From the NCBI RefSeq assembly GCF_042660085.1, contig NZ_JBHSTI010000058.1, forward strand, positions 1-32,000: a stretch of DNA of 32,000 bases, given 5' to 3'. The DNA comes from Longivirga aurantiaca (GTDB taxonomy: Bacteria > Actinomycetota > Actinomycetes > S36-B12 > CAIYMF01). Below, piece by piece: positions 10,764 through 29,775 of this stretch. Position numbers and translations under genes: made by a program. Every line of letters starts with the position of its first letter. Positions within the stretch are counted from its first letter, which is position 1. The notes below the pieces were generated by a model that saw only the letters and a program-made list of their open reading frames with translations, had not been told where the DNA came from and did not search any database.

Positions 10764-13400
10764 TCAGCCGGTGTTCTGCAGCCCGGCGGCCGAAGCGTTC
10801 ACCGCGAGCAGGAGCACGCTGCGCCACGGCGTGCTCTCGCCGTCGGTCCGCACATGTGTCAGGGCGCGCAGCTCCAGCCGCGACAGAGCGTCGACGAAGG
10901 GCGCCCGAGCGGTCACGGTCGCGGCCAGGACCCGCTTGCGCTCCAGCAGCTCGGACTGCCCCATCACGTCGAGCACCAGGGAACGGGTGAGGTCCATCTC
11001 GGCCAGGATCTGCTCGGTGATGTCGCTGCGACCTCCGAGGCTGAGGAACAGCGAGGCGAGCATGCGGTTGCTCTTCGCCAGGCTCATCTCGGCGACGTCG
11101 AGCAGCGCGGCCATCAGCGGCCACTCACGGTAGGCGCGCTGCAGGAGCTCGATGTCCCCCACAGCCGACAGGCCCGACCCGATGCCGTACCAGCCCGGAA
11201 GGTTCGCCCGCGTCTGGCTCCAGGCGAAGACCCACGGGATGGCCCGCAGGTCCGACAGCGACCGACCGGACTCGGCGCCGCTGCGCCGCACGGGGCGGGA
11301 TCCGAGCCGCAGCTCGCCGATCTCCTCCAGCGGGCTGGCGTCGGCCAGGACGTCGGCGAAGCCGGGAGTCTCGACCAGCCGTCGGTACTCCTCGCGGGAC
11401 GCCCGCTCCACCGTGGCAGCGAGGTCGGCGTACCGCTGGGCGGCCGAGGCGTTGCGCTCGGCCACGGCGGCGGTGTCCGCCAGCAGCACCGCCGTCGTCA
11501 TCCGCTCGAGGTGGCGCTGGGCCACCGTCGTGTCCCCGTAGCGGGCGAAGATCACCTCGCCCTGCTCGGTGACCTTCAGCCGGCCGTCGACCGACCCCGG
11601 GGGCTGCGCCGTCACCGCGCGGTGGAGCGGCCCGCCGCCGCGTCCCAGCGAGCCGCCCCGACCGTGGAACAGCGTCAGCCCGACCGCATGGCGCCCTGCC
11701 CACGCCACCAGTCGGCTCTGCGCCTCGGACAGCGCGATCGTCGCCGCAGCAGGTCCGACATCCTTGGCGGAGTCGGAGTAGCCGAGCATGACCTCGACGG
11801 CTCGACCGGTGCCGGCGAGCCAGTCCTGGGTCGATCGGAGCGGCAGCCACCCGTCGAGGACCGCGGTGGCCCCGTGCAGGTCCTCACCGGTCTCGAACAG
11901 CGGGACGACGTCGAGCCGCAACGGACGGTCGCCCACCGCGAGCCGCGCCAGCGCGCGCACCGCGACCAGGTGCGCCGACGTCTGGCTGAACGAGACGACG
12001 TACCGGCCGCATGACCGCTGACCCCACCGGCTCTGCAGCCACTCCAGCACGCGCAGCGTGTCGAGCACCTCGGCCGCACGGTCCGAGCGGGCCACGACGC
12101 CCTCCGGCCAGCCGTCGGTGGCCAGCCCGTCGAGGAACGCCTCGTCGTCCGCCGCGGCCGCGGCGTCGTGCACGCCAGGCAGCTGGCCGATGAGCTCGAT
12201 GAGGGCCTCTCGGTGGATCGCCGAGTGCTGCCGCACCTCGAGCTCGGCCAGGTGGAAGCCGAACGTCTCCACGACCCAGATGACGTGCTGCAGCTCCCCG
12301 TTCGCGGCCCGCGCGGCACCCGCCTGCTGCAGCGACTCCTGCACGAGCCGCAGGTCGTCGAGCAGCTGCTCGGGGCCGGTGTAGGAGTGCTCGGTGAGGC
12401 CGGCGCGGGTGGCACGGATGCGCTCGGCCATGACGAGGAGCTTCTGACGGTGGGGCTCCCCAGGGCTGGCCAGCCGGATCTGCGACATGCGGTCGGGCAT
12501 GCCCACCGCGTCCCGTGCCAGCGACTCCTGCAGCGCCCGGGAGGGCGCGGTGTCCGACTCGTCCTCGGTCAGGGTGCGTCCCACGCGTTCCACCGCGTCG
12601 AGCAGGGCCGCGAGCGCGTGCTCCGCCTGCAGCGCCATCGCCTGACGGGTGACATCGGCGGTCACGTAGGGGTTGCCGTCGCGGTCGCCACCGACCCAGG
12701 ACCCGAACCGGACGAAGGCCGGGACCGGTGTCGGGATGGCGCCGCTGCGCTCGCCCACCAGCGCCACCTCCGTCGCGCGGTACAGCCGCGGAACGGCGCG
12801 GACGAGCGTCTGGTCGAACACCGTGAGGACCGTGCGGACCTCGTCCAACGGGCCGGGCCGTGTCGTGCGCAAGGAGGACGTCCGCTGCAGCGTCTCGATC
12901 TCCTCGAGCAGGCGACGTCGGGCCACCCATCGCTCGGCCGCACCCACGCGTGGGTCGTCGTGCCGTGCCAGCTGGTCCGCCACCCGCCGCACCGCCGTCG
13001 CGACTGCACGGCGTCGTGCCTCCGTCGGGTGGGCGGTGAGGACGGGGTGGATGCGCAGACGGCCCAGGACCTCCTGCGTGCCCTCCGCCGTCGCCGACAC
13101 GACGGCGGGCCACAGCTCGTCGCCGAAGTCGGCGTCAGGCGCCGCCGGCTGCTCGTGCTGGATGGCGCGGGCACGCTCGCGCTCGTCGGCCAGGTTGGAC
13201 AGGTGCAGGCGCACCGCGAGCGCGCGGGCGAGACTGCCGGAATCCTCCGGCCCGAGCGCGTCGATGGCGGTCTCCGCCGCCGCGGGGTCCGCGGTGATCT
13301 GCTCGAGAAGCAGGGCGATGTCCGCGGCGCCGGACTCGCGCAGGACCTGGTCGTGTAGCGTCGACAGCAGGTGCAGGTCGGCTGCCAGCAGCTCGGCCAC
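10764..13400 (-). CDS. ppc: Phosphoenolpyruvate carboxylase
   Basis: 878 aa. PEPC motifs VLTAHPTE and GYSDSAKD, the FHGRGGSLGRGGGP loop and the invariant C-terminal QNTG. GTG start with GGGAGG 6 nt upstream. Confidence 0.95.
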   Translation of the reverse strand: MAELLAADLHLLSTLHDQVLRESGAADIALLLEQITADPAAAETAIDALGPEDSGSLARALAVRLHLSNLADERERARAIQHEQPAAPDADFGDELWPAVVSATAEGTQEVLGRLRIHPVLTAHPTEARRRAVATAVRRVADQLARHDDPRVGAAERWVARRRLLEEIETLQRTSSLRTTRPGPLDEVRTVLTVFDQTLVRAVPRLYRATEVALVGERSGAIPTPVPAFVRFGSWVGGDRDGNPYVTADVTRQAMALQAEHALAALLDAVERVGRTLTEDESDTAPSRALQESLARDAVGMPDRMSQIRLASPGEPHRQKLLVMAERIRATRAGLTEHSYTGPEQLLDDLRLVQESLQQAGAARAANGELQHVIWVVETFGFHLAELEVRQHSAIHREALIELIGQLPGVHDAAAAADDEAFLDGLATDGWPEGVVARSDRAAEVLDTLRVLEWLQSRWGQRSCGRYVVSFSQTSAHLVAVRALARLAVGDRPLRLDVVPLFETGEDLHGATAVLDGWLPLRSTQDWLAGTGRAVEVMLGYSDSAKDVGPAAATIALSEAQSRLVAWAGRHAVGLTLFHGRGGSLGRGGGPLHRAVTAQPPGSVDGRLKVTEQGEVIFARYGDTTVAQRHLERMTTAVLLADTAAVAERNASAAQRYADLAATVERASREEYRRLVETPGFADVLADASPLEEIGELRLGSRPVRRSGAESGRSLSDLRAIPWVFAWSQTRANLPGWYGIGSGLSAVGDIELLQRAYREWPLMAALLDVAEMSLAKSNRMLASLFLSLGGRSDITEQILAEMDLTRSLVLDVMGQSELLERKRVLAATVTARAPFVDALSRLELRALTHVRTDGESTPWRSVLLLAVNASAAGLQNTG

Positions 13401-13504: not shown

Positions 13505-13540
13505 CACGAGGCCCCGGACCGTGCGGTCCGGGGCCTCGTG
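13505..13540 (-). terminator. Intrinsic-terminator-like hairpin (16-bp perfect stem, 4-nt loop) downstream of the permease gene
   Basis: CACGAGGCCCCGGACC-gtgc-GGTCCGGGGCCTCGTG lies 14 nt beyond the permease stop (13554). Confidence 0.6.
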
Positions 13541-13553
13541 GGTGCGCTGGCGA

Positions 13554-15080
13554 TCAGCTGACGAGGTCGGCGATCGCGTCCTCGTTCTCGTCCGTCAGGC
13601 GGAGCTTGCCCACCAGCAGGCCGAGGGCGAACATCGCGAACGGCGTCAGCACGAGGATCCAGCCGGTGGCGTTGAGGCCCCACGGCGTCACGGTCGGGTC
13701 GACCCCCTCCGCGACCGTGCCCGCGAGCAGGCCGAAGCGCGAGGCCAGCAGCCACATGCCCACGGTCAGGCCGATGATCGAGAGCAGCGGAGCGATGACC
13801 GATGCCCACACCCCGACGTCTCCACGATGGCGGGAGAAGAACGCCACGACCGCGAGCGACACGAGGATCTCGACGAAGACGATGGCGAGCACCGCAAGGC
13901 CGGAGAACCAGTAGAAGAGGTTGAGGATCGGGTCGAGAGCAGCCACCCAGAAGATGACGATCACGACCAGGGAGATCACCGAGGTGACCAGGGTGCCGGC
14001 CCAGGGGGCGCCGCGGCCGTTCACACGGTCGAGCGAGGTCGGCAGAACACCGGAGCGGCCCATGGCGTAGAAGTAGCGCGCGGCGGAGTTCTGGAACGCC
14101 AGCAGGCCCGCGAACAGCGACGAGATGACCAGCCAGCTCATGAGGTCGACGATCCAGGTGCCGACGTACTGCTCGGCCACCGCGAACAGGACGCCTGCCG
14201 GATTGGCGAGCGGCACGCCCTCGACCGTGGAGAGCTCGACGGTCCGGTCGATCACGGTCGAGGCCCCGAGGCCGGTGACGACGGCGAACGCGGTGAAGCC
14301 GAACACGATGGTGATGGTGATGACCGCCAGGTACGTCGCCCGCGGCACCGTGCGGTGCGGGTCCTTGGCCTCCTCGCCGTAGATGGCGGTGGCCTCGAAG
14401 CCGATGTAGGAGGCGAAGGCGAAGGCGAGCGCGATGCCCGCGGTGCTCGCAAGCCCTCCGGCGAAGATGTTGGCCGGCGCGAACGAGGCGCCGAGGTCGA
14501 TGCCCTCGGGCTTGTCGGAGGAGAAGAAGACGGCGAAGCCGGTGACGACCAGCGACAGGAGCTCGAGGGACATCAGGACGCCGAGGAGCTTGGCACCGAC
14601 GTCGACCGAGAGTGCTGAGAGGCCGAGCACGAGGGCCCAGGCGATGAGCGTCCAGGCGTACCACGGCAGGTCGATGCCGAACTTCGCCTTCATCTCGCCT
14701 GACACCAGGCCGCCGAAGAACCCGAAGATCGCGAGCTGGACGGCGAGATATGCGACCAGCGACACGAACGCCGAGCCGACGCCGGGGATGATCCCGAGGC
14801 CCCGCCCGACGTAGGCGAAGAAGGCCCCGACGTTGGTCACGCGGCTCGCCATAGCGGCGTAGCCGACGCTGAACAGCAGCAGGACGAGGCCGACGACGAC
14901 GTAGGCGCCGGGGGCCGCGGCACCGTTGCCGAGGACGATGGCGACCGGGACGGCGCCGGTCATGCCGACGAGCGGTGCGGCTGCGGCGACGACGAAGAAC
15001 ACGATGCCGAGGACGCCGAGGCGTCCGTGGTGCAGCGCGGTCTCCGGGGTCTCCTGCGGCGGGGGCTGGAGCTGGGTCAT
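13554..15080 (-). CDS. APC superfamily amino acid/amine permease
   Basis: 508 aa, about 12 TM helices. The N-terminus GVLGIVFFVVAAAAPLVGMTG is typical of the APC family. GAGGAGAG RBS before the ATG. Confidence 0.9.
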   Translation of the reverse strand: MTQLQPPPQETPETALHHGRLGVLGIVFFVVAAAAPLVGMTGAVPVAIVLGNGAAAPGAYVVVGLVLLLFSVGYAAMASRVTNVGAFFAYVGRGLGIIPGVGSAFVSLVAYLAVQLAIFGFFGGLVSGEMKAKFGIDLPWYAWTLIAWALVLGLSALSVDVGAKLLGVLMSLELLSLVVTGFAVFFSSDKPEGIDLGASFAPANIFAGGLASTAGIALAFAFASYIGFEATAIYGEEAKDPHRTVPRATYLAVITITIVFGFTAFAVVTGLGASTVIDRTVELSTVEGVPLANPAGVLFAVAEQYVGTWIVDLMSWLVISSLFAGLLAFQNSAARYFYAMGRSGVLPTSLDRVNGRGAPWAGTLVTSVISLVVIVIFWVAALDPILNLFYWFSGLAVLAIVFVEILVSLAVVAFFSRHRGDVGVWASVIAPLLSIIGLTVGMWLLASRFGLLAGTVAEGVDPTVTPWGLNATGWILVLTPFAMFALGLLVGKLRLTDENEDAIADLVS

Positions 15081-15122
15081 GGCTCTCCTCGTGGCGCCGG
15101 GACTCGGCGAGGTCGGCGGATC

Positions 15123-15139
15123 CGTTCGGATCCGAATGA
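15123..15139. promoter_or_regulatory. Operator-like palindrome, site d: CGTTCGGATCCGAATGA (flanked by two CGGATCCG palindromes at 15117-15124 and 15127-15134)
   Basis: 43 to 59 nt upstream of the permease ATG (15080, minus). 15 of 17 positions match site a1. Confidence 0.5.
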
Positions 15140-15192
15140 CTGCGCAAGAGTGGCGCGTGCCACAGCCCGAGTCAAGGGTTTCGGGGCGATTT

Positions 15193-15216
15193 TGTCCGGG
15201 TGCGAACGACTCTCGT
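15193..15216. promoter_or_regulatory. Motif site e: TGTCCGGGTGCGAACGA, plus extension; the 14-mer CGAACGACTCTCGT is identical to 4779-4792
   Basis: Read directly from the sequence, in the 230-bp non-coding region upstream of the permease gene. Confidence 0.4.
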
Positions 15217-15310
15217 CAGCACGGGTGGGCAGAGTGCGCAATGCAGCCTGCGGCGACGTGCGGAGAGTGACCGAACGTGGTCAGTCGTGCGCGGAGCGGA
15301 ACCGGATGGC

Positions 15311-15637
15311 TCAGGTGCGGCGGGGCGCGTCTGCAGAGGCGAAGAGCGCGAGCAGCTCGCCGACCTCGTGGTCGGCCTCGGCCGGGTGCCGGAACCGCCC
15401 CGCCGGGTGCAGCTCGTAGGTGTTGCGGCGTCCGACCCGGGTGCGGGTCACGAAGCCGGCCTCCTCGAGGTCGCGCACGATCGCCTGGGCGGCGCGCTCG
15501 GTGATCTGGGCGGCGTCGGCGAGGTCGCGCAGCCGTGCGTCGGGGTCGCGCGCGATGAGCAGCAGGACGCGCGCGTGGTTGGTGAGCAGGGTCCAGGAGC
15601 GGGTCGGCGACTCGGAGGGCGGCTGCACGGCGCCCAT
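15311..15637 (-). CDS. Small winged-helix (ArsR/MarR-like) transcriptional regulator
   Basis: 108 aa from the ATG ending at 15637. HTH segment LRDLADAAQITERAAQAIVRDLEEAGFVTRTRVGRRNTYEL. The listed start at 15691 is a TTG inside the operator palindrome and is less likely. Confidence 0.7.
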   Translation of the reverse strand: MGAVQPPSESPTRSWTLLTNHARVLLLIARDPDARLRDLADAAQITERAAQAIVRDLEEAGFVTRTRVGRRNTYELHPAGRFRHPAEADHEVGELLALFASADAPRRT

Positions 15638-15676
15638 TGTGGTCCGTCCATGGGCCACGGCGGAACCGCGACTCGC

Positions 15677-15704
15677 TAGACAGGAAGTCAACTTCCTGTA
15701 TTAT
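15677..15704 (+). promoter_or_regulatory. Candidate dab promoter (-35 TAGACA 15677-15682, -10 TATTAT 15699-15704) with a perfect 9+2+9 palindrome ACAGGAAGT-CA-ACTTCCTGT (15680-15699) filling the spacer
   Basis: Read directly from the sequence. 16-nt spacer. The -10 ends 7 nt before ATG 15712 and there is no Shine-Dalgarno sequence, which suggests a leaderless mRNA repressed at the palindrome. Confidence 0.5.
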
Positions 15705-15711
15705 TCTTCGC

Positions 15712-18700
15712 ATGTCACCCCTGCGCGTCACGACGACGGCCCTCACCCTCACCGCGCTCGGTTCCGTGCTGCTGCTCGCGACCGTCCTGGTCAACGGCCC
15801 CGTGACGGCCGACCTGGGCGCGGTCGACGCCGGTCCGTTCGGCACCGCGACGGTCGGGCTCGGCCTGGACGCCGTGCGCGCGATGCTGCTGGTGCTCGTC
15901 ACCGGCGTCGGTGCGGTGGTGGCGGCGTACTCGCGGCGCAACCTCGCCGGACAGGCCCGGCTGGCCCGCTTCGCGGTGCTGCAGCTCGTGGTCGTGCTCG
16001 GTCTCGCCCTCGCCGTCAGTGCTGCGAGCCTGCCCCTGCTGGCCCTCGGCTGGATCGCCTCCGGTCTCGCGATGTCGGGGCTGGTCGAGCACGCGGGCGG
16101 CGACCGGGCACGCGCGGCGAGCCGCTGGGTCCGGCGCAGGCTGCTCGTCGGCGATCTCGCCCTCGTCGCCGCGGTGGTGGTGTCCGGTGCGTGGCTCGGC
16201 GTGCTCGACGTGGCGGCGCTCGGCGCGGCCGCAGGGACGGGCGCCGCTGCCGAGGTCGTGGCCGTGCTCGTCGTGCTCGCAGGTGCCGTGCGCAGCGCGC
16301 TGGTGCCCGCGCACCGCTGGCTCCCCGAGGTGGCCGAGGCGCCCTCGCCGGTGAGCGCCCTGCTGCACGCCGGCTTCGTCAACGGGATCGGCATCCTCGC
16401 CCTGCTCCTCTGGCCCCTGCTCTCGGTCAGCGGTGCGGCGCGCGGCCTGGCGTTCGCTCTCGGCCTCGCCACCGTCGTCATCGCGACCGCGCAGCTGCGC
16501 GTGCGCTCCGACGTCAAGGGCCGGCTCGCATCGTCGACCTCGGCGCAGATGGGCTACCTCGCCGTCACGCTCGGCCTCGGGCTGCCGGCGGCGGCGCTCA
16601 TCCACCTGCTCGGCCACGGCATGTGGAAGGCCGGGCTCTTCCTCGGCGCCGGCGGCGCGATCGAGCGGGCCCGGGCGGCCCGAGCCCCGCACGCGTCGCG
16701 CCGCGACCCGCGCGCCTGGCTCGCCGCCGCGCTCGGTGTGCTGGTCGTCCTTCTGGCGGCGGGCCTCCCGCTGGCCTGGGCCGAGCCGCTCCTCTCGATG
16801 CCGGCGTACCTGCTGCCCGTGGCGGTCGCGGCGCTGGCCGCGGCTGTCGCGGCCCGGGCCGCGGCGACCGGCCGGCGTGCCGGCAGCGTCGTCGTCGCCC
16901 TCGCTGCTGCGACCGGCTATGTGCTCGCGGTGCGGCTGGCCGACCATGCGCTCGCCGACGTGCTCGGCTGGAGCCCGCCGGCCTGGGGCGAGCCGGGCAC
17001 GGCGCTGCTCGCGGGCGCCGTGGCGGGCCTCCTGCTCGTGGGCGCCGTGGGCTGGCTGCTCGACGCGCGGCTGCGGCGGGGCGCCATGCCGGGCCTCGCC
17101 GCCCGGGTCGGTCGCTCGGTCCACGCCCCGGTCGCCGCCCTGCCGCGGATCGCGCTTCCCGCGCCCGTTCCGGGCAGCGGCCTGCCCGCACCGGAGCCCG
17201 CCCTGGTCGTCGAGGCCACCGTCACCGCCGCCGAGGTCGTGGCGCCGAGCTGGCCGCTGGCCGCGTTCGTGGCGAGCAACCCCCTCGCCGGGCTCGAGCA
17301 CCTGGACTTCGCCGACGCGGTCGACGCCGCTGCAGCCACCTGGGGTGCGCGCACCGAGATCGACGCTGCGCTGCTGCGGGCGTCCCTGGACGACGGCGTG
17401 CTCGACCCGGCTGCGCTCCAGCGCGTCGCCGCCACGGTGGCCCCGGGCCTCGACCTCCCGCTGCAGGGGTGCGTACGCGAGCGGTCGGCCCTCGTCGCCG
17501 CGGCGCTGCTCGCCGAGGAGCCCCCGCAGGACGACGTCGACTGGGTGCGGTCGGCCCTCGGTGCCCGGTCGTGGGGCCGGTCGCGCCGCCGGCTCGTGTC
17601 GTCGCCCGCCGAGGCGGCCGCGGACGGACGTCCCGAGCTGGTCGCCCTCGACTCACGCGGCCGCGACCTGGTCGCGACGTACGCCGCCCGCAGCTACGGC
17701 GCGGCGTCGTGGCCCTCGCCGTACCCCGGTGTCTGGGACGCCGTCCGCGGCGACGCCGCGCACCTCGACCGCCTGCTCCGCACGCGCGGCGCCGCCGGGT
17801 GGGTCGCCAGCATGCCGGTCGCACCGGCCGAGGCCGTGGCGGAGGCGCTGGCGCGGTGCGGCGTGCTCGCCGACGACGTCGTGCCCGCGCTGTCGCGGGT
17901 GCTCGCCCGCGACCCGGGCTGGGTCGCGCACCTCGCGTGGCGGCGCCGGGTCGGCCGTGCCGACGGCGTGGTCGAGCTGCTCGACCTGCTCGCCGCCCGC
18001 CTCGTCCTGGAGTCGCTGGTGGTGGCGGCCGCCGGCCCGCGGGCCGCGCTCGTGCGGGACGTCGAGGACGACCTCGCTCCGGTGGTGGCGATGCTGATCC
18101 GCGCATCCGGCGCGCCCCGGGACTCCGTCGCGCCGGCCGCGCTCGACGCGCTGCGCGAGATCGCGGTCGAGATGCTCGAGGAGGGCCTCGGGCTGCTGCG
18201 GCTGCGCGCGCTCGAGGAGTCGTACCGGCGTCCGCTCATCCAGCACCTCGCCGCGCGCGCCGAGGTGCTGGCCGGCGCACCCGTCGCCGGGCAGGCGGAT
18301 GCTCAGGTGGTCGCGTGCATCGACGTGCGGTCCGAGCGCCTGCGCCGCGCGCTCGAGGCGCGCGGTCCCTGGGAGACCCTCGGCGCGGCCGGCTTCTTCG
18401 GGCTGCCGCTGGCGCACTGCTCCGCCTCGGGTGCTCTCACCGAGCGGCTGCCCGCGCTGCTGCGTCCTGCGCACGTGGTCTCCGAGCCGCAGCGTGCGAC
18501 GCCGTGGGCCGAGTCGGTCCTGGGCGAGACGTCGGACGCTGTGCACGCGGTCGAGCTCGCGCCGGCGGCGCCGTTCGCGCTCGCCGAGGCGGCCGGCTGG
18601 GTGTCCGGCCCGTCCGCCCTCCTGCACACCGTCCTCCCCCGCCTGTGGGGCCAGGTCCGGCCGGGCGGGGAGTCGGTCCCTGAGGGCGTGCTCGACCTCG

Positions 18701-19845
18701 AGCAGGGATCCGGCGCGCCCGCGGGCTTCGGGCTCGACGAGCTCGTGGCGGCTGCGGCGGCGTTCCTGCGCACGACGGGGCTGCTCCACCCGGCCCCGGT
18801 GGTGCTGCTCCTCGGGCACGGCGGTCACGCGGCGAACAACCCGCACGTCGCGGCGTACGACTGCGGCGCCTGCGGCGGCTTCGCCGGCGACGTGAGCGCG
18901 CGGGCCATGGCCCAGGTGCTCAACGACCCTCGGGTGCGCGACGGCCTGCGGGCCCAGGGCATCGATCTGCCCGCCGCCACCTGGTTCGGCGCTGCGCTGC
19001 ACGACACGACCCGCGACCGGGTGAGCATGCTCGTCGACGTCCCGCCCGCGTGCGCGGACGTGGTCGCGAGGCTCCTCGACGACGTGGCGGGCGCGTGCGA
19101 CGCCGTGGCGGCGGAGAGGGCGCCGCTGCTGCCCGAGCGGCTGCCGGCCGACACCGCGCGGCTGCGCGGCGCGCTCGACTCGCGGGCCGTCGACTGGGCG
19201 CAGGTGCGGCCCGAGTGGGGCCTGGCCCGGAACGCCGCGATCGTGATCGGGCCCCGGAGCCTGACCGATGCGCTCGACCTCGACGGCCGGGTGTTCCTGC
19301 AGTCCTACCGTGCCGAGCTCGACGAGGACGGCTCGTCGCTCGACTTCCTCATGAGCGCGCCGCTCGTGGTGGCGCAGTGGATCTCGTCGCAGTACTGGTG
19401 CTCCACCGTGGACCCGCTGCGGTTCGGTGCCGGCGACAAGACCACCCACAACGTCCTGACGTCGGCGTCCGGCGAGCCCGCACCGCTGACGGCCGTCGTC
19501 ACCGGTGCCCGCGGCGACCTCCGCATCGGGCTGCCCTGGCAGGCCGTCTCGGCGAGCGCGCCGTCGGGCGGGCGGTGGACCGAGCGGCCGTTCCACGAGC
19601 CGCTGCGTCTGCTGGCGGTGATCCACGCGTCGACCAGCGCGGTCGAGGCGGTCCTGGCACGGCGGCCCGAGGTCGCCCGGCTGGTGCTGGGCGGGTGGGT
19701 GTCGCTCGTGGTCCTCGACCCCGCGACGGGTGCGGCCTGGCGACGCGATCCGGAGGCCGGCTGGGTGCCTGCCGAGCACGTCGTGGGCGGCCACGCCGTC
19801 CTCGATCGAGCAGGGGACGAGGTGCCGGGGTCGAACGTCGGGTGA
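15712..19845 (+). CDS. dabB-dabA: Fused DabB-DabA inorganic-carbon pump: N-terminal NuoL/Proton_antipo_M-like membrane module plus C-terminal DUF2309 (DabA, beta-carbonic-anhydrase-like) module
   Basis: 1377 codons in one frame with no stop. The N-terminal part has about 14 TM helices with HRWLPEVAEAPSPVSALLHAG, SSTSAQMGYL and HLLGHGMWKAGLFLGAG. The DabA part starts at SWPLAAFVASNPLAG and contains VVACIDVRSE, LLLGHGGHAANNPHVAAYDCGACGG, RPEWGLARNAAIVIG and VAQWISSQYW...GAGDKTTHN. The start is taken at ATG 15712 (MSPLRVTTT); the listed start at 15637 overlaps the divergent regulator. Confidence 0.85.
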   Translation: MSPLRVTTTALTLTALGSVLLLATVLVNGPVTADLGAVDAGPFGTATVGLGLDAVRAMLLVLVTGVGAVVAAYSRRNLAGQARLARFAVLQLVVVLGLALAVSAASLPLLALGWIASGLAMSGLVEHAGGDRARAASRWVRRRLLVGDLALVAAVVVSGAWLGVLDVAALGAAAGTGAAAEVVAVLVVLAGAVRSALVPAHRWLPEVAEAPSPVSALLHAGFVNGIGILALLLWPLLSVSGAARGLAFALGLATVVIATAQLRVRSDVKGRLASSTSAQMGYLAVTLGLGLPAAALIHLLGHGMWKAGLFLGAGGAIERARAARAPHASRRDPRAWLAAALGVLVVLLAAGLPLAWAEPLLSMPAYLLPVAVAALAAAVAARAAATGRRAGSVVVALAAATGYVLAVRLADHALADVLGWSPPAWGEPGTALLAGAVAGLLLVGAVGWLLDARLRRGAMPGLAARVGRSVHAPVAALPRIALPAPVPGSGLPAPEPALVVEATVTAAEVVAPSWPLAAFVASNPLAGLEHLDFADAVDAAAATWGARTEIDAALLRASLDDGVLDPAALQRVAATVAPGLDLPLQGCVRERSALVAAALLAEEPPQDDVDWVRSALGARSWGRSRRRLVSSPAEAAADGRPELVALDSRGRDLVATYAARSYGAASWPSPYPGVWDAVRGDAAHLDRLLRTRGAAGWVASMPVAPAEAVAEALARCGVLADDVVPALSRVLARDPGWVAHLAWRRRVGRADGVVELLDLLAARLVLESLVVAAAGPRAALVRDVEDDLAPVVAMLIRASGAPRDSVAPAALDALREIAVEMLEEGLGLLRLRALEESYRRPLIQHLAARAEVLAGAPVAGQADAQVVACIDVRSERLRRALEARGPWETLGAAGFFGLPLAHCSASGALTERLPALLRPAHVVSEPQRATPWAESVLGETSDAVHAVELAPAAPFALAEAAGWVSGPSALLHTVLPRLWGQVRPGGESVPEGVLDLEQGSGAPAGFGLDELVAAAAAFLRTTGLLHPAPVVLLLGHGGHAANNPHVAAYDCGACGGFAGDVSARAMAQVLNDPRVRDGLRAQGIDLPAATWFGAALHDTTRDRVSMLVDVPPACADVVARLLDDVAGACDAVAAERAPLLPERLPADTARLRGALDSRAVDWAQVRPEWGLARNAAIVIGPRSLTDALDLDGRVFLQSYRAELDEDGSSLDFLMSAPLVVAQWISSQYWCSTVDPLRFGAGDKTTHNVLTSASGEPAPLTAVVTGARGDLRIGLPWQAVSASAPSGGRWTERPFHEPLRLLAVIHASTSAVEAVLARRPEVARLVLGGWVSLVVLDPATGAAWRRDPEAGWVPAEHVVGGHAVLDRAGDEVPGSNVG

Positions 19846-19975
19846 GCCTGCGGCGCATCTCTCGGTCGGCTCACGGGCGGGGGTAACCCCCAGGAGGAGC
19901 GAGCCGGAGCCGATGGCGCGAGCGGGACGCCCTCCCGCACGCCCGGCTCCCGGAGGCTCTTCCTGCACGTCCGGG

Positions 19976-20611
19976 TCAGGCGGGGCGGTCGACCAGGTGC
20001 TCCTTGGCCCACACCGCGGCGCTGGTGCGGTCGCCGACCCCGAGCCGTGTGAAGACGTTCGTGAGATGCCCCTTCACGGTGCGCTCGCTGATGCCGAGCC
20101 GACGCGCGATCTGGCCGTTGGTGAGGCCGCGCACGACCAGGAGCAGCACGTCGCGCTCGCGCTCGGTGAGGTCGTCGGCCGGGGTGGTGGTGGGGGCCAT
20201 CCGTCGGTTGAGGGCCACGCGCGCGGCCTTCGGGTGCAGCGGCGACTCGCCACGTGCGGCCGCGCGGACGGCACCCACGATCTCGTCCGGCTCGGAGTCC
20301 TTGAGCATGTAGCCGACCGCGCCGGCGTCGAGCGCGTCGAGGATGCGCTCGGGGTCGGAGAACGACGTGAGCGCGACGACCGCGACGGTGTCGTCCATCG
20401 CGACGATCTCGGCCGTGGCGCTGGTGCCGTCGCGGCCGGGCATGGACAGGTCCATGAGCACCACGTGCGGCTGGTGCTCGCGCACGGCGTCCACGGCGTC
20501 GCCCGCGTTGCTCACCGCCGCGACCACGCGGATGTCGTCCTGGGTCTCGAGCATGAGCGCCACACCGTGCCGGAGCACGGGGTGGTCGTCGACGACCACG
20601 ACGTCGATCAC
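19976..20611 (-). CDS. LuxR/NarL-family response regulator
   Basis: 211 aa. The receiver domain is VIDVVVVDDHPVLRHG...VVLMDLSMPGRDG. The C-terminal HTH is LTERERDVLLLVVRGLTNGQIARRLGISERTVKGHLTNVF. The GTG start overlaps the kinase stop (GTGA at 20608-20611). Confidence 0.9.
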   Translation of the reverse strand: MIDVVVVDDHPVLRHGVALMLETQDDIRVVAAVSNAGDAVDAVREHQPHVVLMDLSMPGRDGTSATAEIVAMDDTVAVVALTSFSDPERILDALDAGAVGYMLKDSEPDEIVGAVRAAARGESPLHPKAARVALNRRMAPTTTPADDLTERERDVLLLVVRGLTNGQIARRLGISERTVKGHLTNVFTRLGVGDRTSAAVWAKEHLVDRPA

Positions 20612-26413: not shown

Positions 26414-28135
26414 ATGCCCGCGCGAAGCCCGCTGCTGCTCGCATCGCTGCGCGGCTACCGCCGGCCGTGGTTGACCGCGGACCTGCTGGCCGGGATGTCG
26501 GTGTGGGCCGTGCTCGTGCCCGAGTCGCTGGCCTACGCGACCATCGCGGGCGTACCCCCGGTCGTCGGCTTGTACGCCGCCGTGCCGGCGCTCGTGCTCT
26601 ACGCAGTGCTCGGGTCCTCCCGACACCTGGTCGTGGCGACCATGTCCGCCACCGCGGCCCTGTCCGCCAGTGTTGTCGCCGTCTATGCGCGCCCGGGCTC
26701 CGGGGACTACGTCGCGATCACGGCGATGCTGGCCATCGTCACGGGCGTGCTCGGCGTTGTCGCCGGGCTGTGCCGACTGGGGTTCCTCGCCACGTTCATC
26801 TCCGAGCCCGTGCTCCGGGGCTTCATCGTCGGTCTTGCGCTGACCATCATCGCCGGGCAGCTGCCCGCGCTGTTCGGAGTGCCCAAGGAGGCCGGCGACT
26901 TCTTCGAGCAGATGGCTGGCCTGCTAAGGCAGCTCGCCCACTCCAACGCCGCGACGCTCGGCGTCGGGCTCGTCAGCCTCGCAGTTGTGCTCGGCTGCCG
27001 GCTCTGGCTGCCACGGCTGCCCGGTTCGCTGATCGCGGTGCTGCTCGGCGTCGCCGCAGTGCCGCTGCTCGACCTCGTCGACCGCGGCGTGGCGATCGTC
27101 GGACCGATCCAGGCCGGTCTTCCCACCCTCGGAATCCCCAGCGGACACGGCCTGGCCGACTACCTCGGGCTGGTGTCGGCAGCCGCCGGCATCCTGCTCC
27201 TCGGCTTCGTCGAGGGCCTCGGACCCGCCAAGGCCTACGCCGCGCGGGAGGGCCTCGAGATCGACGCGAACCGCGAGCTGATCGGGGTGGGCGCGGCCAA
27301 CATCGGCGCCGGGATCACAGCGGGCATGGTCGTGAACGGCACACTGGCCAAGACCGCGGTCAACGTCAACGCCGGAGCCAAGAGCCAGGTCTCCGGACTC
27401 ACGGCCGCCTCGCTGACGATCATCACGCTGCTGTTCCTCACGGGCTTGTTCGAGAACCTGCCCGAGGCCACCCTCGCCGCCATCGTGATCGCCGCCGTCA
27501 TCGAGCTGGTGAACATCCCGGCGCTCGTCCGGCTCTACCGCGTCTGGACCGGGCATCTGGGCCGGATCTACGGCTGGGCCGCCCGCGCCGACTTCATCGC
27601 CGCCCTCGCCGCGCTGCTCGGCGTGCTCGTCTTCGACACGCTGCCGGGCCTGTTCATCGGCATCGTGGTCTCGATCCTGCTGCTGCTCTACCGCGCGTCA
27701 CGCCCGCAGGTGGCCACCCTTGCGAGCACCGCCACGACCGACGGCCGCGACCACATCTGGGTCGATGCCGCACGCCACCCCGACCTCCCCGTCCGCGACG
27801 ACGTCCTCGTCGTCCGCGTCGAGTCCGGGCTCTTCTTCGCCAATGCCGACAACGTCCGCACCGCCATCCGGGACCGCATCACGCCCACCACGACGGCTGT
27901 CGTCCTCGACGCCTCCACCACCCCGGCCATCGACGTGTCGGCCACCGAGATGCTCGCCCAGCTCGCCGGCGACCTGCGCCGCGACGGCATCGCACTGCTC
28001 ATCGCGCACGGGATCGGCCAGGTCCGCGACGTCCTGCGACGTGCTGGTGCCGAGCAGGACGTCCTTCAAGCCCTGTACGACACCGTCGACGAGGCCGTCG
28101 CCGCGGCACCCCCCGAGCGCGTCCCAGGCACGTAG
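26414..28135 (+). CDS. SulP family inorganic anion transporter with a C-terminal STAS domain
   Basis: 573 aa. The N-terminus DLLAGMSVWAVLVPESLAYATIAGVPPVVGLYAA is the SulP signature region. The C-terminal 130 aa are STAS-like. GGAGG 9 nt before the ATG. Confidence 0.9.
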   Translation: MPARSPLLLASLRGYRRPWLTADLLAGMSVWAVLVPESLAYATIAGVPPVVGLYAAVPALVLYAVLGSSRHLVVATMSATAALSASVVAVYARPGSGDYVAITAMLAIVTGVLGVVAGLCRLGFLATFISEPVLRGFIVGLALTIIAGQLPALFGVPKEAGDFFEQMAGLLRQLAHSNAATLGVGLVSLAVVLGCRLWLPRLPGSLIAVLLGVAAVPLLDLVDRGVAIVGPIQAGLPTLGIPSGHGLADYLGLVSAAAGILLLGFVEGLGPAKAYAAREGLEIDANRELIGVGAANIGAGITAGMVVNGTLAKTAVNVNAGAKSQVSGLTAASLTIITLLFLTGLFENLPEATLAAIVIAAVIELVNIPALVRLYRVWTGHLGRIYGWAARADFIAALAALLGVLVFDTLPGLFIGIVVSILLLLYRASRPQVATLASTATTDGRDHIWVDAARHPDLPVRDDVLVVRVESGLFFANADNVRTAIRDRITPTTTAVVLDASTTPAIDVSATEMLAQLAGDLRRDGIALLIAHGIGQVRDVLRRAGAEQDVLQALYDTVDEAVAAAPPERVPGT

Positions 28136-28569: not shown

Positions 28570-29775
28570 GTGGCGACAACGGCGGGGGCCGCCAAGCGGA
28601 AGAGATCGTCGGCCTTCGGGACGGTAGAGCAACTGCCGTCCGGGAGGTTCCGAGTCCGTTGGCAAGACGACAACGGACGTCGTGTCACCGCACCGCACAC
28701 CTTCGCGACCAAGTCGGACGCGCGGCGCTACCTCGCCACGGTGGAGGCCGATCGCATCCGCGGGACCCTCGGAGCCCGACGGCAGGTCAGCGAAAACTTG
28801 AGCACCTACGGGAGCGCCTGGATCGCACAGAGGCCGCAGATCAAAGACTCCACCCGCCACCAATACGACATCGACTTCCGGCTTCACATCGAGCCGTTGC
28901 TCGGCCAGCTTCGCCTCATCGAGATCGACGCGGAGGCTGTGCGCCGCTGGCACGCGGATGAGTCACTCAGGCTGCGGGAGGAACTGGCTGGATCGGGACG
29001 GTCCGGCGCGGCAACCGTCGCGCGTGCGTACCGGCTGCTCAGGTCCATCCTGCAGACGGCAGTCGACGACGAGATCCTCGGTCGAAACCCGTGCCGGATC
29101 TCAGGCGGCGGAGACGCCCGTTCGACGGAGCGGCCGGTCCTCTCCGCTGAGGAGATCGGGTGGTTGGCCGAAGCGGTGCCCGGGCGGTACCGAGCCTTCG
29201 TGCTCGTCGCTGGTTTCACCGGACTGCGCGCCGGCGAGATTGCGGCTTTGCGCATTGCCGACCTCAACCTGCGATCCGGCAAGGGGAGCGTCACGGTGAA
29301 TCGTCGCTTCTATCGCGTCGGAGGTGCCATCACCGTCGACACTCCCAAATCGCGGGTCGGTGCCCGCGTGGTTGCACTTCCGACCTTCGTCGCCACGGAG
29401 CTGCGTGCTCACCTCAATGCCTACAGGCCCAGCGCGGATGGTGCTGATCTGGTCTTTGTCACAGCCGGAGGCCGCGACGTCATCGACGGCTACTCCCAGG
29501 TGCTGCGCCGGGGCCTCAACCGAATCGGCCGCAGCGACGCGCGAGCGCACGACCTCCGTCATTCGGCGTTGACGTCCGCAGCCGAGCACGGGGCGACCCT
29601 GGCAACGCTGATGCAGATGGCCGGGCACTCGACGCCGGCGGCGGCGCAGCGGTACCAGCATGCGACGCTCGAGCACGCGCGTCGAGTGGCCGCGGCGATG
29701 GACAAATCGGCAGCGGGATTCGTCTCGCGTAGCGGGAGCAAGAGCAAGGCTTCAGGACCCGCCGACAGCACCTGA
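28570..29775 (+). CDS. int: Tyrosine-type site-specific integrase
   Basis: 401 aa. The N-terminal arm-binding/SAM-like region is FGTVEQLPSGRFRVRWQDDNGRR. The catalytic residue contexts are GLRAGEIAAL (Arg), AHDLRHSA (His-x-x-Arg) and GHSTPAAAQRYQH (His...Tyr). Confidence 0.9.
   Translation: MATTAGAAKRKRSSAFGTVEQLPSGRFRVRWQDDNGRRVTAPHTFATKSDARRYLATVEADRIRGTLGARRQVSENLSTYGSAWIAQRPQIKDSTRHQYDIDFRLHIEPLLGQLRLIEIDAEAVRRWHADESLRLREELAGSGRSGAATVARAYRLLRSILQTAVDDEILGRNPCRISGGGDARSTERPVLSAEEIGWLAEAVPGRYRAFVLVAGFTGLRAGEIAALRIADLNLRSGKGSVTVNRRFYRVGGAITVDTPKSRVGARVVALPTFVATELRAHLNAYRPSADGADLVFVTAGGRDVIDGYSQVLRRGLNRIGRSDARAHDLRHSALTSAAEHGATLATLMQMAGHSTPAAAQRYQHATLEHARRVAAAMDKSAAGFVSRSGSKSKASGPADST

Follow-up and report, generated by a model that had tools for sequence, protein, structure and literature searches.

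A DabB-like channel and a complete DabA module in one reading frame of Longivirga aurantiaca: a probable natural single-subunit member of the DAB family

The joining of DabB and DabA in one polypeptide has been described before. A natural DabA:DabB fusion in Acidimicrobium ferrooxidans was used as an argument for topology (Desmarais et al., 2018 preprint, bioRxiv 10.1101/476713), and a preprint on DAB1 states that the two domains are sometimes fused (10.64898/2026.05.01.722082). Lo et al. (bioRxiv 10.64898/2026.03.13.711513; Nat Commun 2026, PMC13144422) could not keep wild-type DAB2 intact and engineered a DabB2-DabA2 fusion modelled on the natural form, which complements carbonic anhydrase-deficient E. 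coli just as the wild type does; its structure was determined by cryo-electron microscopy (cryo-EM) at 2.6-3.2 Å (PDB 9rd0/9rd8/9rd9). That article cites Schmid et al. 2021 (J Bacteriol 203:e0037721) for the natural single-subunit DAC. In the present study, a stretch of 32,000 nucleotides from Longivirga aurantiaca (contig NZ_JBHSTI010000058.1, hereafter the window) was analysed, and its gene dabBA was found to encode both modules in a single open reading frame (ORF). The product is probably a natural single-subunit member of the DAB/DAC/MpsAB family, whose members are carbonic anhydrases that are coupled to energy and work in one direction ("vectorial"). When Schmid and co-workers tested one-, two- and three-subunit complexes in carbonic anhydrase-deficient E. 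coli in 2021, those that rescued the strain reportedly included a natural one-subunit complex. The window gene is an unstudied example of a known architecture, which is common, annotated, described and exploited experimentally. A preliminary description of the gene, made from the sequence alone, had implied that a single-chain DAB would be unusual and uncharacterised; this implication has largely fallen, and its premise and proposed tests were largely overtaken by the natural fusion of Desmarais et al. and by the fusion structure and complementation of Lo et al.

The ORF opens with ATG, and the only stop codon in its frame is the terminal one. Upstream of this ATG, the frame remains open back to 15637, the 25 additional codons being hydrophilic, and the start methionine is common to the homologues (MSPLR, MSSLR or MTSLR). 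Two domains were recovered by Pfam in this frame: Proton_antipo_M (PF00361) at aa 105-324 (E 4e-27, 95.6 bits against a cut-off of 21.5) and DabA (PF10070, DUF2309) at aa 505-1330 (E 1.7e-182, 609.1 bits against a cut-off of 25), the latter covering profile positions 3-747 of 747. Proton_antipo_N matched aa 46-87 below the threshold. These searches, which the preliminary description had proposed, supply the domain borders and bear out its claim of a single uninterrupted 1377-aa frame with both modules. The protein is 100% identical to an NCBI entry (P0001) from Longivirga aurantiaca (Actinomycetota, Sporichthyales), which is annotated as "putative inorganic carbon transporter subunit DabA". 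Within one chain, a DabB-like channel is followed by a variable linker and by a complete DabA module with an intact zinc site, and the order DabB then DabA in one uninterrupted frame is kept in relatives. The sequence landmarks named earlier all lie where they had been placed, namely HRWLPEVAEAPSPVSALLHAG (aa 201-221), SSTSAQMGYL (aa 274-283) and HLLGHGMWKAGLFLGAG (aa 298-314) in the membrane module, PRIALPAPVPGSGLPAPEPA (aa 478-497, nt 17143-17202) in the linker, WPLAAFVASNPLAG (aa 514-527) at the start of the DabA module, and CIDVRSE (aa 869-875, nt 18316-18336), GHGGH (aa 1035-1039) and DCGACGG (aa 1050-1056, nt 18859-18879) within it. Conservation was counted in a 116-sequence fused alignment, for which 115 homologues were aligned with the query, and two segments of the protein, aa 1-560 and aa 167-1352, were modelled with AlphaFold2 from 116-homologue alignments with the window sequence first.

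The DabA module consists of an N-terminal domain and two domains resembling beta-carbonic anhydrase. Chain 9rd0_A of DabA2 was aligned to aa 828-1362 (E 3.6e-78), and the model of aa 167-1352, which includes the junction and the helix hairpin described below, reached a predicted local distance difference test score (pLDDT) of 92.2 and a predicted TM-score (pTM) of 0.91. In this alignment, Cys869 and Asp871 correspond to C351 and D353 of DabA2, His1036 (nt 18817-18819) to H524 and Cys1051 (nt 18862-18864) to C539, giving the Cys-x-Asp ... His ... Cys ligand set of the family; all four ligands are invariant in 116/116 fused homologues. The zinc candidates proposed earlier thus stand for these four residues, and His1039 drops out as a ligand in the DabA2 alignment; Cys1054, also among the candidates, is likewise invariant in the family. 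A second signature of DabA is a hairpin of two helices (model residues 766-783 and 787-808, aa 932-949 and 953-974), which is the counterpart of the "finger"/"elbow" of DabA2 according to the alignment and the predicted helices. Here FTFVESAG is paired with FALAEAAG, so that Glu959 (nt 18586-18588) takes the position of E444, and this position holds Glu in 113/116 homologues and Asp in 3/116. The finger motif of DabA2 inserts into DabB, and the substitutions E444A/Q abolish DAB2 activity (Lo et al., PMC13144422).

The membrane module gives the DabA module its NuoL/MrpA-like PF00361 partner in the same chain. The AlphaFold2 model of aa 1-560 (pLDDT 89.3, pTM 0.89) contains 14 transmembrane (TM) helices, and every loop obeys the positive-inside rule, in agreement with the earlier estimate of about 14; Arg-rich loops (aa 75-86, 126-143, 263-271, 318-334, 387-389 and 453-468) alternate with acidic or neutral loops. 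Both termini of the module are therefore predicted to be cytoplasmic, a topology that would place the DabA module in the cytoplasm. The helices are equivalent to TM2-TM15 of DabB2/NuoL: aa 6 pairs with position 34 of NuoL models, and aa 35-424 align with residues 72-467 of the DabB2 chain 9rd0_B (aa 35 with residue 72). DabB2 has 15 TM helices (Lo et al., PMC13144422), and this difference, together with the alignment offsets, indicates that TM1 is absent from the window module. A periplasmic beta-hairpin of the NuoL type follows the first helix at aa 31-52. The closest relative of solved structure is 9rd0_B (E 1.2e-33), which ranks above all NuoL/ND5 chains of complex I, and the channel residues conserved in DabB were found with one replacement. 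Asp148 is kept at the position of D185, Ile115 at that of I151, where NuoL has E144, and His219 at that of H260; the relay of TM11 is kept as His298/His302/Lys306, these NuoL-type H/H/K proton-relay residues being invariant in the fused homologues. At the position of the TM7 lysine (DabB2 K235, NuoL K229), the protein has Arg194 (nt 16291-16293), as do 115/116 fused homologues, and the same Arg-for-Lys replacement occurs in split actinobacterial DabBs. Elsewhere, most proteobacterial DabBs have Lys at this position, whereas Gln occurs at the Legionella and Chlamydiales loci and at one locus each from a planctomycete and a gammaproteobacterium. Identity as NuoL or MrpA was rejected, since the best NuoL model of NCBIfam scored 178.6 bits against an equivalog cut-off of 380, Mrp models scored at most 82 bits against cut-offs above 900, and no nuo or mrp genes were found as neighbours. 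A Foldseek comparison of the model with the PDB (to April 2026, without 9rd0) returned NuoL/ND5 chains only, with query-normalised TM-scores of 0.11-0.17.

The continuity of the two modules might in principle be doubted at two levels, the gene and the product. At the level of the gene, two adjacent genes, dabB and dabA, could look like one if a stop codon had been lost or an indel introduced in the draft genome. The exact protein is known from one sequence, on a 48.7-kb contig, and split relatives often carry a lone same-frame stop between the genes, so that one base error could mimic a fusion. However, the closest relatives (56-68% identity) come from independent JGI, ENA, NCBI and Logan assemblies, and every one of them is a single chain (1359-1425 aa) whose junction is equivalent. 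No DabA start region is present in the fused clade, the junction is continuous and confidently modelled, and third-position GC is 0.93 throughout the frame. A word-indexed search with the 1377-aa protein returned 191 significant proteins, and the best 120 of these, the own entry and P0084 (PF10070 only) excluded, combine PF00361 with PF10070 in single chains about 1130-1480 aa long. The two-domain chain was found in at least 115 other 90%-identity clusters (35-68% identity) from NCBI, JGI, ENA and Logan assemblies, which answers the earlier call for support from independent assemblies. Its sources include Nanopelagicales metagenome-assembled genomes (MAGs), Terrabacter, Isoptericola, Nocardioides, Phycicoccus, Nostocoides, Humibacillus, Aquipuribacter and Micromonospora, and the genomes of Nocardioides, Micromonospora, Phycicoccus and Isoptericola isolates are complete or nearly so. 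The conservation of the fused architecture in relatives effectively refutes an artefact, which is scarcely credible, and by comparison of sequences the fusion is not a product of a frameshift. At the level of the product, a separate DabA could arise from an internal start, or the linker could be cleaved, and the working complex would consist of two chains. The junction comprises an Arg-rich cytoplasmic exit, a short amphipathic helix (aa 460-470) and the stretch rich in Pro and Ala (aa 478-497), and it also takes in the helix that opens the N-terminal domain of DabA (aa 496-510). Its length is 48-108 aa (median 60) in the fused homologues, it is rich in Ala, Arg, Val and Pro, and mean column identity is 13% at aa 471-497 vs 73% at aa 514-530; such poor conservation would suit a cleavable linker, and an in-frame GTG at V510 stands 2 nt after GAGG. 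An internal start was nevertheless rejected, as the junction contains no ATG and the spacing of this single GTG is too short for a typical ribosome-binding site. Moreover, the pLDDT of 84-97 across the junction in the model of aa 167-1352 indicates that it is packed rather than simply disordered, and the engineered fusion was purified uncleaved and solved. A two-chain product is therefore very improbable, and the single polypeptide is preferred.

The split form is widespread. In an exhaustive HMMER scan with the DabA module alone (1495 representatives of 50%-identity clusters, E <= 1e-30), both modules were in one chain in 47 of the best 150 representatives. Of 79 loci in species-representative genomes from many phyla, the majority have separate genes, with dabB preceding dabA, and five have single-frame fusions (two Nanopelagicales, Nocardioides zeae, an Actinomycetales MAG and the myxobacterium Byssovorax). 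The survey of split and fused orthologues proposed in the preliminary description therefore finds both forms. In six split loci (L003, L012, L020, L033, L047 and L070), dabB and dabA share a reading frame and are divided by exactly one stop codon, so that a single point mutation would create the fusion; in other split loci, there is a short overlap of a few bases between the genes. When 111 full-length DabA modules were placed in a neighbour-joining tree, the window protein fell inside a large, almost purely fused clade, and 11 further fused sequences are scattered among the split ones. Fitch parsimony requires at least 15 state changes on this tree, which is rough, and errors in gene calling may account for some of them. 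In the fused Byssovorax protein, the DabA module has its closest relatives among split DabAs (46-55% identity to those of Longimicrobiales, Sphingomonadales and Myxococcales) rather than in the actinobacterial fused clade; the best segment of the match between the whole Byssovorax protein and the window protein has 34% identity. As judged from these sequences, the two genes have been fused repeatedly, often when a single stop codon was lost, and the fusion is the product of a trivial event, as dabB and dabA normally abut in this order and often share a frame.

Fused genes were also observed in other settings. In the fungus Hyaloraphidium curvatum (JAIVFI010000018.1, L088 8001-12068, P0061), a fused DabB-DabA of 1290 aa, 41% identical to the window protein, is encoded by a gene whose span exceeds the coding length, implying introns. 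Its neighbours are eukaryote-like (a zf-MYND gene and intron-containing genes for acetate kinase and phosphotransacetylase), and the case looks like horizontal transfer into a fungus rather than contamination. In Micromonospora siamensis (LT607751.1, L086 5370-10577), the fused DabBA gene is divergent from a gene for a beta-carbonic anhydrase, and its stop codon overlaps the start codon of a P-II family gene that follows it; a DUF6671 gene adjoins fused DabBA both there and in Isoptericola (L087).

Herein, we propose that the window protein should act, by homology to DAB2 of H. neapolitanus, as a one-way CO2 hydratase that is gated by the proton motive force and traps CO2 as cytoplasmic bicarbonate. 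CO2 would diffuse into the cell and be hydrated to bicarbonate at the deeply buried zinc site (C869, D871, H1036 and C1051) of the cytoplasmic DabA module. Turnover would be gated by the flow of a cation, most likely H+, through the NuoL-like module (D148/R194, H219, H298, H302 and K306), and the channel would be completed by the DabA helix hairpin carrying E959. Through this gating and the completion of the channel, the reaction would proceed only towards bicarbonate, which would accumulate. From the last TM helix, a variable tether of about 60 residues would lead straight into the N-terminal domain of DabA. The fusion fixes a 1:1 stoichiometry and prevents dissociation, and it would leave the mechanism unchanged. 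The natural single-chain pump of the preliminary description is thus correct as a structural reading; we infer the activity by homology, and the coupling ion, physiological role and regulation are likewise inferred. The cryo-EM structure of DAB2 displays the zinc site, the finger motif, E444, the K235/D185 ion pair and I151 (Lo et al., PMC13144422). Uptake is sensitive to CCCP (Desmarais et al., bioRxiv 10.1101/476713), and the H260A substitution in DabB of H. neapolitanus abolishes the rescue of CAFree in air (DAB1 preprint, 10.64898/2026.05.01.722082). Energy-coupled accumulation of inorganic carbon or rescue of carbonic anhydrase-free E. coli has been shown for other members of the family and for the engineered fusion (10.1101/476713; PMC13144422; 10.64898/2026.05.01.722082).

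Several points weigh against this proposal. The channel differs in detail from the solved DabB2, with Arg in place of the TM7 lysine and TM1 missing, and MpsAB has been argued to use Na+, as discussed by Lo et al. (PMC13144422). In addition, the putative anaplerotic role draws on the heterotrophy of the organism and on a phosphoenolpyruvate (PEP) carboxylase gene 2.3 kb away, which is absent there in the syntenic loci L080 and L081. The fused protein could instead be a Na+-coupled bicarbonate transporter, as in the original MpsAB model, in which MpsAB was proposed to be a Na+/HCO3- symporter and rescues a Na+-transporter-deficient strain (as summarised in PMC13144422); a channel that is not identical to that of DabB2 would leave room for such coupling. 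DAB2 did not rescue a Na+-transporter-deficient strain and was fully active without sodium (Lo et al., PMC13144422). The full beta-carbonic anhydrase-like zinc site and the finger glutamate are conserved in the fused proteins, which argues for CO2 chemistry rather than transport alone, and the invariant H/H/K relay likewise speaks against Na+ coupling. Isotope-disequilibrium experiments by Schmid and co-workers in 2021 are also said to have identified CO2 as the substrate of several complexes. A Na+-coupled transporter is therefore unlikely, and the H+-driven CO2 hydratase is preferred. Longivirga aurantiaca is an aerobic heterotroph, and the pump would probably provide carboxylases with bicarbonate when CO2 is at the level of air, like MpsAB in Staphylococcus.

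The control of dabBA, rather than the fusion, may be the potentially new part of this locus. A winged-helix regulator stands directly upstream and divergent in the fused dabBA loci L080, L081, L082, L001, L051, L024, L002 and L087, and likewise beside split dabB-dabA in L013, L010, L015, L031 and L025 (Actinoplanes, Cryobacterium, a Mycobacteriaceae MAG, a Schlesneria planctomycete MAG and a Bdellovibrionales MAG). The regulator is 80-85% identical where DabBA is about 60-67% identical, and it reached none of the curated NCBIfam models. In the 4.6 kb from 15500 to 20100, one sigma-70-like match was found vs 0.0 expected in shuffles. The ATG of dabBA lies 7 nt beyond the end of the -10 element of this match, so that the mRNA is probably leaderless, and the promoter stands at the same distance from the start codon in L080, L081, L082, L001, L051 and L024. 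The promoter spacer is filled by a perfect palindrome, the arms of which co-vary among loci, as ACACGAATA-tt-TATTCGTGT in L082 and ACACGAA...TTCGTGT in L080. Taken together, dabBA is probably repressed by the divergent winged-helix protein acting on the palindrome within a leaderless promoter. The regulator family comprises at least 1709 clusters and is not exclusive to dab loci. In Micromonospora (GCA_003957645.1, L083 5019-6342), a family member 69% identical to the regulator is divergent from a beta-carbonic anhydrase (Pro_CA) gene, and other members adjoin TerC (L085 and L089) or a response regulator (L084). A purely DAB-specific family was rejected on account of such distant members. The family may regulate inorganic-carbon genes in some lineages, not being specific to them. 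That the window regulator is a dedicated, undescribed repressor of inorganic-carbon acquisition genes, responsive to inorganic carbon or pH, is a speculative suggestion and rather doubtful.

PEP carboxylase consumes bicarbonate, and its gene appears to have been inserted between the luciferase-like and permease genes, as L080 and L081 lack it at the equivalent position; for the same reason, its linkage to dabBA was rejected as a conserved operon feature and is suggestive at most. In two Castellaniella loci (L036 and L042, about 13530-16360), a PEP carboxylase gene lies directly beside dabA. Other neighbours encode an amino-acid permease, a GerE-type response regulator with a HisKA_3 kinase, a subtilase and a SulP/STAS transporter. 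The last scores far below the BicA equivalog cut-off, which leaves no evidence that it carries bicarbonate. No carbonic anhydrase or RuBisCO genes were found among the ORFs of the window scanned with Pfam (all but a few short ORFs and part of 28-32 kb), and no tRNA genes were found across the window. The stretch of lower GC around the phage-type integrase gene may mark the edge of an integrated element. The coordinates of all features are collected in Table 1.

Table 1. Features of the dabBA locus and its surroundings (positions in the window)
Feature	Position	Strand	Basis or remark
dabBA	15712..19845	+	Single ORF, 1377 aa + stop; fused DAB/DAC-type vectorial carbonic anhydrase (probable); both Pfam domains in one frame
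DabB-like membrane module (aa 1-455)	15712..17076	+	PF00361, NuoL-model and 9rd0_B alignments, AlphaFold2
Junction (aa 456-513)	17077..17250	+	Alignment of 116 fused homologues, AlphaFold2
DabA module (aa 514-1330 by Pfam, fold on to ~aa 1352)	17251..19701	+	PF10070, 9rd0_A alignment, AlphaFold2
Zinc ligands Cys869 and Asp871 (C-I-D)	18316..18324	+	DabA2 C351 and D353 (9rd0_A alignment); invariant in 116/116 fused homologues
Helix hairpin aa 932-974, counterpart of DabA2 "finger"/"elbow"	18505..18633	+	9rd0_A alignment, AlphaFold2
Zinc ligands His1036 and Cys1051, plus Cys1054	18817..18873	+	9rd0_A alignment; invariant in fused homologues
Winged-helix regulator, 109 aa, MarR_2/ArsR-like	15311..15640	-	PF12802, E 3e-8; divergent from dabBA
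Sigma-70-like promoter TAGACA-16 nt-TATTAT	15677..15704	+	10/12 matches; only promoter-like match in 15500-20100
Perfect 9+9 bp palindrome ACAGGAAGT-ca-ACTTCCTGT	15680..15699	.	Fills promoter spacer; candidate operator of the divergent regulator
PEP carboxylase	10764-13400	-	Pfam; 2.3 kb upstream of dabBA
SulP/STAS transporter	26414-28135	+	6.5 kb downstream; just below sulP subfamily cut-off
Phage-type integrase	28570-29775	+	Stretch GC ~0.68 vs 0.72-0.80 elsewhere

The present study adds a natural example from a mesophilic freshwater actinobacterium and leaves the understanding of the family unchanged. The new details are the 14-TM channel module without TM1, the variable tether of about 60 residues, the repeated origin of the fusion and the conserved regulator-operator pair. 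DAB pumps encoded by one gene are attractive as parts for the construction of CO2-concentrating mechanisms and, since the two-gene complex falls apart, useful for structural work; the idea has already been applied in the DAB2 cryo-EM fusion. Among the known systems, the three-subunit DAB1 (DabABC; Thermocrinis albus cryo-EM, 10.64898/2026.05.01.722082) shares the DabA-DabB core and the elbow/finger insertion. DAB1, however, needs the small membrane protein DabC, whereas the window ORF is flanked by the winged helix-turn-helix regulator upstream and a response regulator downstream, and no DabC gene was found among the flanking genes. The two-gene systems DAB2, MpsAB and Tcr_0853-0854 have both Pfam families and the dabB-dabA order seen in most of the 79 loci, but they consist of separate, dissociable polypeptides, whereas the window modules are covalently linked. 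The single-subunit DAC/DAB of Acidimicrobium ferrooxidans likewise combines DabB-like and DabA parts in one actinobacterial polypeptide with DabA in the cytoplasm; it comes from the class Acidimicrobiia, whereas the window protein belongs to Actinomycetes/Sporichthyales. The engineered Dab2 fusion of H. neapolitanus has its domains in the same order, B being linked through its C-terminal end to the N-terminal end of A, and it shares the zinc ligands C, D, H and C, the finger Glu, the D/K(R) ion pair and the Ile at the position of NuoL E144. The two differ in that the DabA N-terminal domain aligns weakly and in that DabB2 has 15 TM helices and a TM7 Lys, whereas the window module has 14 without TM1 and a TM7 Arg. 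Finally, the Dab2 construct is an artificial direct fusion, whereas the window protein is natural and carries a variable junction of about 60 aa between its modules.

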